DNA of 51,886 nucleotides from Escherichia phage PhiR12_2, in sequence record PV340550. The stretch is one strand, 5' to 3'. How positions within the stretch are numbered: the stretch's first letter is position 1; each line of letters begins with the position of its first letter. A program made the translations under genes and the position numbers. The notes under the pieces are model-generated. The model searched no databases and was not told where the DNA came from. It worked only from the letters and a program-made list of their open reading frames with translations. Positions 17,997-20,738 of the stretch are shown piece by piece.

Positions 17997-18044
17997 CCAT
18001 AATATTCACATATGCTGCTGCTTTTGCATTCAGCAACCATCACA

Positions 18045-18068
18045 AGCCCACCTCCTGTGGGCTTTTTT
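18045..18068 (+). terminator. tR'-like rho-independent terminator downstream of Q
   Basis: Hairpin agcccacc-tcc-tgtgggct followed by TTTTTT. Confidence 0.6.
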
Positions 18069-18755
18069 GCATTCGCGTGCAATCAAAACAAGAGTCTTAG
18101 TGATATGGGCCTGAGATATGGTGGTGGAAACATCGCTCCGCTCTTGGCTGTCATATCTACGCGAACAGGCTCTATCCCTAAGGTAAAGCGATGAAAGAAA
18201 TAAAATTAACGCCAGAAATGGTGCTTTCTGTTGTTGATTACAATCCATCATCAGGCGATTAGCAGGGTATCAGTTACCCGTTGAAATTTTTAAATACCTC
18301 ACAATTCAGGCGGTTGACTGTTGTCTGGTTTGCGGGGAGTTTGTTAAAAGAAACTGGCATGGTGAATCCCCCTGTGCGGAGGGGCAATCAGCAACTGGTG
18401 TTTTGTCACCGACCCTTATCCTTTCTGTGCGGGTTCAGGTGCTGATACTGAACTCACCGGGAGGCACCCGGCACCATGCAATGGCACATAGCGCCACTCT
18501 CCAGCCCCTCTCCGGAGGGGCTTTCTTATGGACAAAAAAAGCCCGCGCTGGGAGACGCGGGCGGCAAGGAATAAACAACAAAACGTGAAGTAATATTTCA
18601 GCTGGCGAATAATATCCGACAGTAATCACTCTGCGCAATAGCGCGGCCTTTTTCGTATTGCGGGCTGTAGTCTTCCTCCTGCCATTGTCCTGTAACTTCC
18701 GGACTTCAGCTCGCTCCTTATCTGACTCACAACATTATCCCGCCAGGGAGGATTC

Positions 18756-20738
18756 ATGACATTTAAACACTACGATGTGGTCAGGGCGGCGTCGCCGTCA
18801 GACCTTGCGGAGCGACTGACACAAAAACTGAAGGAGGGGTGGCAGCCATTTGGCAGCCCTGTCGCCATCACGCCTTATACCCTGATGCAGGCCATTGCGG
18901 CGGAAGGTGATGTCACCACACCGGTGGTGGTGCAACCGTCGGGTGATGGTGGCGCTGTTATCAGCACCACCAGCGAACCGGAATATTACTTTGTCATTGC
19001 GCTGGCCGGGCAGTCCAACTCGATGTCTTTTGGCGAGGGGCTGCCGCTGCCGGATACGTATGATCGTCCTGACCCGCGTATTAAGCAACTGGCGCGTCGC
19101 AGCACGGTGACACCGGGCGGTGCGGCCTGTGCATATAACGACATTATTCCTGCAGACCATTGTCTGCATGATGTGCAGGACGTGAGTAATCTGAATCACC
19201 CGAAAGCAGACCTCAATAAAGGGCAGTATGGCTGTGTGGGGCATGCCCTGCATGTGGCCAAAAAACTGCTGCCGTTTATGCCTGCCCGTGCGGGGATCCT
19301 TCTTGTCCCGTGTGGACGTGGCGATTCGGGATTTACTGCGGGAGCAGAGGGCGCGTTTAATGAGGCGTCGGGTGCGACAGCGGGCTCTTCCCTGTGGGGG
19401 GTGGATAAACCGTTGTATCGTGACCTGGTCAGCAGAACGCGTGCAGCCCTGAAGAAAAATCCGAAAAACGTGCTGTTGTCGGTGATCTGGATGCAGGGGG
19501 AAAAAGATGTCAGTTCGGGGAGACATGCAGAGCACAATGCACTTTTTCTTGCCATGGTAAATAAATACCGTGCAGACCTGGCAGATATTGCAGACCAGTG
19601 TATTGGCGGGACAACGTCCGGCGTCCCGTGGATTTGCGGTGACACCACGTACGACTGGAAGGCGAAGTATGCAGTGCAGTATGAGGCGGTTTACGGAGGC
19701 TATAAAGGCAAGGCGGCGCAGAATATTCACTTTGTGCCGTTGATGACGGATGAGCATGGTGCGAATGTGCCGACAAACGAGCCGTCAGAAGATCCGGACA
19801 TTATCACGGCGGGATACTATGGTGCCGCGTCACGCAGTAATGGTAACTGGACGACAGCCGATCGTAAAACGCACTTCAGCTCCTGGGCGCGAAGAGGCAT
19901 TGTTTCAGATCGGCTGGCAGGAGAGATACTGGTGCGAGCCGGGCGTTTGCTGCCGTTCCTGAGCGGGCAGTCTGCACCGCTGGCGACCACGCCAGCCTCC
20001 ACGGGGGATGCACAGTCTGGCTCTGCGGGTCCGACGCAACAGCAGGGTGCAGGTACTTCTGCAGGCGGTCATACTGAAGCCGTAACAAGAATGGTGGCCG
20101 GATATGATGCGAACAGTGGCAGTGGTGTATGGACAGAGCAGCAGTGGAATGCGTCCGGTGGTAAAGGCACTGTGACGGATGACAGTGGCAGGAAGGCGCT
20201 GCGACTGGAAAAACAGCCGGGTAAACTGACCTCCTGGAAGATGTTCCGTACTGTTGCGGTGGAGGAGGCAAAAAATCTTCTCAGTAAGGGAGGTGAAATT
20301 GCCGTGCGGTTTAAGATCCCGGAGGGTGTCGAACTGGTTAACGGTCAGTTTGTCTTTGGTCTGTACTGGCCGGTGTCGCAGTGGGCGTCAGGCGCGACAG
20401 CAAACAGCATGCTGGCGTCCTTCTTCCTTCAGACGGATGCATCAAATCTGAATCTGATGTACCACAAGGGGGAGTCGAATGCGCAACTGGGCACATTTGG
20501 GGCATTTGACCATAACTGGCATACAGTTGTTTTCCGCTTTGCGGGAAATAACAGCGAAAAAGTGGTGCCGGTGATTGATGATGCAGAGCAGTCTGCGTTT
20601 GACCTGGTGATGTGGACAAATGATGGCTTTACAGCAGATACGCTGACGCTGACAGATATCACGGGGGCAAAAGCGACGTATCCTGTACTGCTTGATACGG
20701 TCACAGTCAAAGTTAACGAAAGCCGGGCATCATCATAA
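18756..20738 (+). CDS. nanS-p: NanS-p-like sialate O-acetylesterase
   Basis: 660 aa; N-terminal ..EGWQPFGSPVAI.. domain and an esterase core with the GQSN motif (..IALAGQSNSMSFGEG..); same size class and position (downstream of Q, upstream of lysis genes) as the nanS-p genes of Stx and related prophages. Confidence 0.7.
   Translation: MTFKHYDVVRAASPSDLAERLTQKLKEGWQPFGSPVAITPYTLMQAIAAEGDVTTPVVVQPSGDGGAVISTTSEPEYYFVIALAGQSNSMSFGEGLPLPDTYDRPDPRIKQLARRSTVTPGGAACAYNDIIPADHCLHDVQDVSNLNHPKADLNKGQYGCVGHALHVAKKLLPFMPARAGILLVPCGRGDSGFTAGAEGAFNEASGATAGSSLWGVDKPLYRDLVSRTRAALKKNPKNVLLSVIWMQGEKDVSSGRHAEHNALFLAMVNKYRADLADIADQCIGGTTSGVPWICGDTTYDWKAKYAVQYEAVYGGYKGKAAQNIHFVPLMTDEHGANVPTNEPSEDPDIITAGYYGAASRSNGNWTTADRKTHFSSWARRGIVSDRLAGEILVRAGRLLPFLSGQSAPLATTPASTGDAQSGSAGPTQQQGAGTSAGGHTEAVTRMVAGYDANSGSGVWTEQQWNASGGKGTVTDDSGRKALRLEKQPGKLTSWKMFRTVAVEEAKNLLSKGGEIAVRFKIPEGVELVNGQFVFGLYWPVSQWASGATANSMLASFFLQTDASNLNLMYHKGESNAQLGTFGAFDHNWHTVVFRFAGNNSEKVVPVIDDAEQSAFDLVMWTNDGFTADTLTLTDITGAKATYPVLLDTVTVKVNESRASS

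Follow-up and report, generated by a model that had tools for sequence, protein, structure and literature searches.

Convergent pairs of Hfq-binding small RNAs (sRNAs) occupy the moron site 3′ of the late promoter pR′ in at least eight prophages of the enterohemorrhagic Escherichia coli (EHEC) strain Sakai (Tree et al. 2014, Mol Cell; PMC4104026). These pairs sit between the cargo and a conserved open reading frame (ORF), which is nanS-p (PMC4104026, PMC7873438), and two of them accompany the Shiga toxin (Stx) genes, stx (PMC4104026). Here we describe the corresponding interval, between the late antiterminator gene Q and nanS-p, in Escherichia phage PhiR12_2 (sequence record PV340550); the whole stretch of DNA analyzed, 51,886 nucleotides, is referred to as the window. 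With a probability of roughly 85%, we read this interval as the almost empty cargo (moron) site of a lambdoid late operon together with a right-flanking gene pair for convergent, Hfq-binding sRNAs. The sequence identity, family membership, terminators, and geometry of the pair were established, as was the recombination joint on its left.

The Sakai pairs of prophage Sp4 (EcOnc05 with EcOnc08/EcOnc21) and of the Stx1 phage Sp15 (EcOnc42) are the closest described. Like the pair in PhiR12_2, the EHEC pairs lie between nanS-p and the cargo slot that follows Q and pR′, and they are arranged tail to tail with their 3′ ends a few bases apart. Unlike those of EHEC, the slot of PhiR12_2 holds only the stump of an HNH endonuclease gene, with no tRNAs, stx, or other moron, and it follows a Q of the phage-21/Sf6 type. 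In enteropathogenic E. coli (EPEC), the sRNA E2348C_1409.E2348C_1408.IGR (Pearl Mizrahi et al. 2021, PMC8550237) likewise lies upstream of, and antisense to, an esterase-family gene, but in prophage PP6, where it resides, an ISEc13 insertion interrupts the region of the upstream partner. In PP6 of strain E2348/69 (locus L015, 112-1485), the ISEc13 transposase gene follows the EcOnc08/21/42-type sRNA some 300 nt past its 3′ end, at the position expected for an STnc100 partner, so the PP6 pair may be half-destroyed.

The elements assigned to the pair in PhiR12_2 are as follows.

18328-18533, plus strand: gene for an STnc100-family sRNA (Rfam RF02076), the counterpart of EHEC EcOnc05 and EcOnc27 (sRNA103)
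18321-18350, plus strand: putative promoter of this sRNA, with a −35 element TTGTCT at 18321-18326 and a −10 element TAAAAG at 18345-18350, in invariant columns of a six-phage alignment (A4)
18503-18530, plus strand: hairpin 1, intrinsic terminator of the STnc100-type sRNA, identified as the 3′-terminal stem of the Rfam model and by a terminator scan
18715-18534, minus strand: sRNA of the EcOnc08/21/42 family, identified by homology to an EPEC sRNA from ligation and sequencing of interacting RNAs (RIL-seq)
18762-18734, minus strand: promoter-like site (ATGTCA-17-GATAAT) that agrees with the consensus at 9 of 12 positions and overlaps the nanS-p start codon

The plus-strand gene matches RF02076 at 143.2 bits (E = 8.8e-33) over model positions 1-206 of 206; the curated gathering score of this family is 47 bits. 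It is 87% identical to the Sakai Sp4 copy, and it differs from the 933W copy (933W/Sp5, which scores 208 bits) in the central variable segment, with about 71% identity over part of the RNA. Members of the same family lie directly 3′ of stx2B in 933W/Sp5, Stx2a_14040, and the stx2c phage 2851, and 3′ of stx1B in the Stx1 phage/Sp15; they are also found in the stx-less prophage loci L009 (strain DETEC-S792), L010 (pig strain PE164), and Sakai Sp4. Hairpin 1, which had been noticed in the initial annotation, is present: AGCCCCTCTCCGGAGGGGCT at 18503-18522 is followed by TTTCTTAT on the plus strand. In the alignment of the six phage copies, the invariant blocks GCATGGTGAATCCCCCTGTGCGGAGGGGC and CTCACCGGGAGGCACCCGGCACCATG flank variable segments, and RNAalifold returned 53 base pairs, nearly all of them kept, with compensatory changes on both sides in 6/53. 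Conserved in the STnc100 structure are the terminator, two internal hairpins, and a closing helix that pairs GCAUGGUG with CACCAUGC over a long range.

The TAAAAG −10 element ends 6 nt before position 18357, the counterpart of the mapped 5′ end of the EPEC sRNA PasD2 (GCATGGTG), and a −35-like invariant TTGnCn stands 18 nt upstream of the invariant TAAAAG. We infer that TTGTCT and TAAAAG form the sRNA's own promoter, and the mature RNA probably extends from about 18357 to about 18530. An alternative −35 element, TTGACT at 18314-18319, was dropped for its 25-nt spacing to the conserved −10 element, with TTGTCT fitting instead. In EHEC Sakai, EcOnc27/sRNA103 (Sp5) and EcOnc05 (Sp4) are bound by Hfq and visible on Northern blots (PMC4104026, PMC7873438); strain EDL933 has 11 annotated STnc100 copies, and a Northern blot has shown the RNA in this strain too (PMC5331693).

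The minus-strand RNA is 96.2% identical over 182/182 nt, with seven mismatches, to EPEC E2348C_1409.E2348C_1408.IGR, whose coordinates were taken from Table S6 of PMC8550237; the same table lists this 182-nt RNA as a homologue of EcOnc08/21/42. The segment 18534-18810 shares 94.6% identity with Sakai Sp4 and 93.8% with Sp15. The peaks EcOnc08/EcOnc21 (Sp4) and EcOnc42 (Sp15), obtained by UV cross-linking and analysis of cDNA (CRAC) with Hfq, lie on the strand opposite to pR′ (PMC4104026), and in Sp4 the EcOnc08/21 peaks abut the STnc100 3′ end. For these placements the coordinates of Tree et al. were calibrated on NC_002695.2 by STnc100/AsxR matches, which gave an offset of 0 for Sp4 and of about +137 for Sp5 and Sp15; without the calibration, EcOnc42 would be wrongly placed inside the nanS-p coding region.

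Hairpin 2, also picked out in the initial annotation, was recovered as GCCCGCG/CGCGGGC at 18541-18562 after a run of A7. Read on the minus strand it is a stem followed by T7, and this is the terminator of the minus-strand sRNA. The two 3′ ends, at about 18530 (plus) and 18534 (minus), face each other tail to tail upstream of nanS-p, with the same geometry in Sp4. The seed CCUUGCC (complement of 18563-18569) adjoins the terminator and is intact, and both seed and terminator match the published EPEC fragment. The EPEC copy occurs in chimeras with the leaders of cfa and dppA and with enterocyte effacement locus (LEE) genes at GGCAAGG/GGCAGGG sites; the seed CCUUGCC is used against GGCAAGG sites, for example in cfa and tir, and 767 RIL-seq chimeras were recorded with the cfa 5′ untranslated region (PMC8550237). 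In the minus-strand promoter-like site, 19 nt separate the −10 element from the 5′ end estimated for the EPEC homologue downstream of it, and ATGTCA-17-GATAAT is a plausible promoter for this sRNA.

AsxR and AgvB occupy the same slot and strand as the minus RNA and have a similar terminator (TTGCC..GCCCG..CGGGC, then a T-run); in 933W, AsxR abuts STnc100 (Rfam) in the geometry seen here. These RNAs are 51-60 nt long, versus about 182 nt in PhiR12_2, and differ in body and seed; the minus RNA is not a member of their group and does not contain their conserved 42-nt 3′ region, AGUAUCUCAUGC..UUGCCCGAACCCAYUCGGGC. The covariance models for AsxR (RF02703) and AgvB (RF02702) gave no match at E <= 1 in 17000-21500 or at E <= 10 in 18480-18760, and the 933W control scored 88 bits in the same test; an assignment of hairpin 2 to AsxR/AgvB was rejected for lack of a match to these models. 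Hits to anti-hemB, Leu_leader, OmrA-B, and SgrS at hairpin 2 (E = 0.02-0.5) were far below the gathering scores and reflected only the terminator. The EPEC sRNAs PasD1 and PasD2 occupy the same position between Q and an esterase gene and share the 5′ block GCAUGGUGAAUCC...GGAGGGGC. By blastn, PasD2 matches the window only over a 49-nt stretch at this block (77.6% identity), and the plus RNA of the window is, unlike PasD, of the STnc100/EcOnc05 sequence type. PasD has been reported to be structurally related to STnc100, and its association with the esterase gene was noted (Zhu, Shabalina and Storz 2026, bioRxiv 10.64898/2026.05.13.724894).

To the left of the pair, the following features lead from Q to the end of the cargo material.

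17478-17996, plus strand: late antiterminator Q, assigned to the phage-21/Sf6 gp59 type, 172 aa, matching Pfam PF06530 at 90.6 bits
17974-18003, plus strand: late promoter pR′ (TTGACA-18-CATAAT), overlapping the end of Q, with 11 of 12 consensus matches
18044-18070, plus strand: intrinsic terminator tR′, with an 8-bp stem (18044-18064 including the 5-nt loop) and T6
18191-18262, plus strand: stump of an HNH/AP2 endonuclease gene, 23 codons, comprising 68 nt (18191-18258) and then a stop codon
18249-18258, no strand: recombination joint, a 10-nt microhomology CATCAGGCGA present in both parental arrangements

The PhiR12_2 Q had been described as of the 933W type. Its identity to the 933W Q is 32% over 79 aa only, versus 98.3% to Sf6 gp59, so that the description is correct at the family level alone: both proteins match PF06530, and they represent one family with different alleles. 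On its sequence, the PhiR12_2 allele is assigned to the phage 21/Sf6 gp59 type (Q21), not Q933. It shares 100% identity with the Q of the PhiR12 phages, ~97% with that of P22-like Salmonella phages, and 85% with that of the stx2c phage 2851. Sf6 gp59 is described by its depositors as phage-21 Q-like, and the Sf6 late promoter is annotated as "nearly identical to phage 21 late promoter" (Sf6 sequence record). The −35 and −10 hexamers of pR′ are the same as those of the Sf6 late promoter, and the transcribed leader diverges right after the −10. The tR′-like terminator was found by a consensus scan at the place where it had been proposed, as a stem followed by a T-run; a short pR′ leader transcript stopping there would be about 60 nt.

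The cargo slot proper covers roughly 18071-18290. The left flank, 17960-18258, which includes the end of Q, pR′, tR′, and the HNH stump, is 100% identical to a prophage of E2348/69 (locus L007), a non-Stx, P22/Sf6-like prophage of EPEC. In that prophage an intact HNH/AP2 gene of 513 bp comes after Q, pR′, and tR′, and behind it stand tRNA-Asn, tRNA-Thr, and lambda-type lysis genes. The stump corresponds to L007 6232-6299, the start of WP_000658764.1 (HNH_3 and AP2 domains), and the identity stops at 18258. From 18259 rightwards, the sequence is 100% identical to the DETEC-S792 prophage, where a different, non-toxin cargo separates that prophage's own Q from this downstream module. Both L007 and L009 carry CATCAGGCGA at the crossover, and the joint is therefore a 10-nt microhomology event. 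As judged from these alignments, it is a crossover inside the HNH endonuclease gene that brought a phage-21/Sf6-type Q module together with a late module of Stx-phage type. The exact joint is rare: NCTC9112 alone covers it fully among 5,426 complete E. coli genomes, and only four PhiR12 genomes do so among phage records. The interval is identical in PhiR12_1 (PV340549.1), a record that annotates nothing between Q and nanS-p; a literature search on the PhiR12 phages found no relevant paper.

On the right, the pair is followed by the late genes.

18756-20738, plus strand: nanS-p-like sialate O-acetylesterase gene, the first late ORF, 660 aa
18631-18655, plus strand: third terminator-like hairpin, placed at 18631-18646 by a consensus scan, in the nanS-p leader, within the body of the antisense sRNA

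The reading of the 660-aa ORF as NanS-p-like agrees with its predicted domains, DUF1737, SASA, and DUF6645 (E = 1.2e-15, 1.2e-9, and 4.5e-32; Pfam), and with full-length similarity to p42 of 933W, the NanS-p of an Stx2 phage (671 positions aligned, 55% of them identical, and a retained GQSN motif). The statement that nanS-p is a neighbor of stx in Stx phages also stands, since it is the first gene after stxB in 933W, an Stx1 phage, and an Stx2a phage. The late module runs in the order STnc100, nanS-p, DUF1378, a small DUF826-type ORF, and a class II holin. It is syntenic with 933W, the Stx1 phage, and Stx2a_14040 at 82-95% DNA identity, which bears out the relationship to Stx phages that the initial annotation had proposed. 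The hairpin at 18631-18655 is conserved in 933W and in the Stx1 and Stx2a phages, with changes in the loop only. Terminator-like sites number 10 in 17800-21500, against 3.5 +/- 1.9 in shuffled sequence.

The relationship to Stx phages raises the possibility that an stx operon was lost here and the interval is its scar, with stxAB and tRNAs deleted and the flanking terminators left behind. The right-hand module does begin close to a toxin gene in Stx phages, homology to them starting about 20-50 nt after the stxB stop codon; the truncated gene and the microhomology joint indicate that DNA was lost or exchanged here; and stx2c phages have Q alleles that share 85% identity with this one. Against this, no stx-derived sequence was found in the whole window (tblastn with the A and B subunits of Stx1 and Stx2, best E = 0.27), and neither stxA nor stxB lies between Q/pR′ and nanS-p, where Stx-converting phages carry them. 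Left of the joint, the DNA matches a non-Stx P22/Sf6-like prophage at 100% identity, and the gene cut short there encodes an HNH endonuclease, being neither stx nor a tRNA. Examples of the right-hand parent type have non-toxin cargo (L009) or tRNAs directly before STnc100 (L010 and Sp4). Matches to the module occur at 7,756 places, as many as 12 in one genome, in 2,910/5,426 complete E. coli genomes; most copies are not adjacent to stx, and lambdoid prophages with the module but without stx are the norm (PMC4104026). We consider the scar very improbable, and no evidence supports past toxin carriage by the right-hand parent.

The two hairpins had been described as structured DNA where the toxin genes would be. 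A comparison with the stx-flanking elements, suggested at the time, found the same elements about 260-310 nt 3′ of stx1B, in a segment that Stx phages also carry downstream of stxB, and did not confirm the description. Because the homology starts just after stxB, the sRNA pair is the right flank of the cargo slot, in Stx phages as well, and not a replacement for the toxin. The idea of a remnant after cargo loss is retained in its general sense, in that recombination or deletion removed DNA here; there is no sign that this DNA was stx. In the stx-less loci L010 (3203-3452, strain PE164) and L013 (1920-2169, Sakai Sp4), a tRNA-Ile/Arg/Arg trio is followed by STnc100 and nanS-p. This layout is the exact Stx2-phage arrangement minus stxAB, the tRNA trio being typical of Stx2 phages.

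The interval is thus not unexplained structured DNA, as it had first appeared, and corresponds to a known convergent sRNA pair plus the pR′/tR′ leader. In this reading, pR′ would fire constitutively and stop at tR′, with only Q-modified RNA polymerase continuing. An STnc100-type sRNA of about 175-205 nt would be made from the plus strand and end at hairpin 1. The minus-strand sRNA, about 180-195 nt long, would start at the promoter overlapping the nanS-p start codon, run antisense through the nanS-p leader, and end at hairpin 2, with a few bases between the two 3′ ends. Both RNAs, to judge from the EHEC and EPEC homologues, would be made in the lysogen, bind Hfq, and pair in trans with host and prophage mRNAs. 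The layout further suggests that the plus-strand terminators (tR′, 18503-18530, and 18631-18655) would keep nanS-p and the lysis genes dependent on Q antitermination.

Several observations weigh against the presence of a functional sRNA pair. Its expression, Hfq binding, and targets are, for this phage, extrapolated from homologues. The plus-strand promoter failed a simple consensus scan. Without its terminator, the minus RNA folds no better than shuffled sequences (z = -0.56), and structure alone would not have pointed to an sRNA on this strand. Published lengths range from 172 to 247 nt for the plus RNA across the family, and for the minus RNA they are about 182 nt in EPEC versus about 271 nt on EHEC Northern blots; as sizes vary between publications, the 5′ ends of both RNAs are approximate. 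Finally, the literature, including PMC7873438, gives no established function for STnc100/EcOnc27. This last point also favors the view that the hairpins are mere terminators, insulating the late genes for Q to override, and that the RNAs ending at them are functionless. Three plus-strand terminators (tR′, 18503-18530, and 18631-18655) between pR′ and nanS-p fit such Q-dependent control. Hairpin 2, however, terminates on the opposite strand and so cannot serve the late operon, and the plus RNA contains, besides its terminator, long internal helices that are conserved and show covariation. The homologues are moreover abundant and Hfq-bound, some depend on Hfq for stability, and many specific mRNA chimeras were obtained by RIL-seq (PMC4104026, PMC8550237). 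We regard terminators alone as an improbable explanation.

The suggestion that at least one small protein lacking annotation is encoded here, for instance within or antisense to STnc100, has next to no probability in our estimate. ORFs of 32-73 aa are present on both strands, a "hypothetical protein" antisense within STnc100 appears in older annotations and in those of the NCBI Prokaryotic Genome Annotation Pipeline (PGAP), and ribosome footprints were reported on some EDL933 STnc100 copies (PMC5331693). None of the six ORFs of 43-73 aa found there matched a Pfam family, in line with the earlier statement that the interval holds no convincing ORF. The ATG ORF at 18476, which follows an invariant GGAGG, changes frame relative to 933W, from which the variable segment differs by 4 nt in length (alignment A4), and conservation tracks RNA helices rather than codons. 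The antisense ORF is, according to PGAP, a pseudogene with internal stops in every genome examined. In RefSeq this pseudogene ("hypothetical protein," internal stop or incomplete) was seen antisense in STnc100, and its positions are given below.

L008 6388-6528, L009 3548-3688, L010 3548-3673, and L014 1698-1939, equivalent to about 18347-18487 of the window, minus strand: PGAP antisense pseudogene

An old Stx1 phage record has "ORF b70" at the same position. With the antisense "hypothetical protein," an sRNA gene has probably given rise to a spurious protein family. The interval had also been said to lack tRNAs, and the tRNA scan then proposed agrees: ARAGORN found no tRNA or transfer-messenger RNA (tmRNA) gene in the whole window, and Rfam found no tRNA.

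Beyond the convergent sRNA pair itself, the two genes could act in cis as a gate on the late genes, through promoter occlusion or collision and by pairing with read-through late mRNA, and could also serve as a fixed block of homology for cargo swaps. This we hold to be unlikely, if less so than the alternatives above. Over about 180 nt of the late-transcript leader, the body of the minus RNA is its full complement. Were the gate real, sRNA output in the lysogen would be coupled to the expression of nanS-p and the lysis genes after induction.

The feature is real, is already explained by the literature and Rfam, and is ordinary for E. coli lambdoid prophages. What is specific to PhiR12_2 is the reassigned Q and the neat microhomology joint, which leaves the cargo slot almost empty and is a clean example of lambdoid module reassortment at the cargo site. 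A toxin-less temperate phage with a phage-21-type Q carries an sRNA pair found beside stx in EHEC, which supports the view that these sRNAs are part of the phage backbone rather than of a toxin cassette. An annotation gap is corrected as well: the PhiR12 GenBank records are blank in the interval, and RefSeq genomes place a pseudogene coding sequence over the sRNA.

Two further terminators were observed in the late region. On the minus strand, an intrinsic terminator at 20744-20764 (CTGCCGCTGGCGG, then T7) stands right after the nanS-p stop codon, in the position of EPEC PasA and EHEC EcOnc51/52, which are convergent with the esterase gene. By blastn, PasA of E2348/69 showed no similarity to the window, so any sRNA ending at 20744-20764 would be of a different sequence type. 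A strong plus-strand terminator-like hairpin at 21398-21426, a 12-bp stem followed by TTTGTTGTTG, lies inside the late operon, between the DUF826-type ORF and the class II holin.

Elsewhere in the window, Rfam identified isrK (RF01394, 76 bits) at 15077-15154 and a C4 antisense RNA (RF01695, 74 bits) at 15180-15264, both on the plus strand. They lie just upstream of antirepressor genes and look like a C4/isrK immunity module of P1/Gifsy type in the nin region; NCTC9112 and phage 2851 have the same two RNAs. The 3′ end of a tmRNA (RF00023, model positions 328-374) is found at 51841-51886 on the minus strand, cut by the window end; either this is a prophage that has integrated at ssrA, or its attachment site carries an ssrA 3′ duplication.

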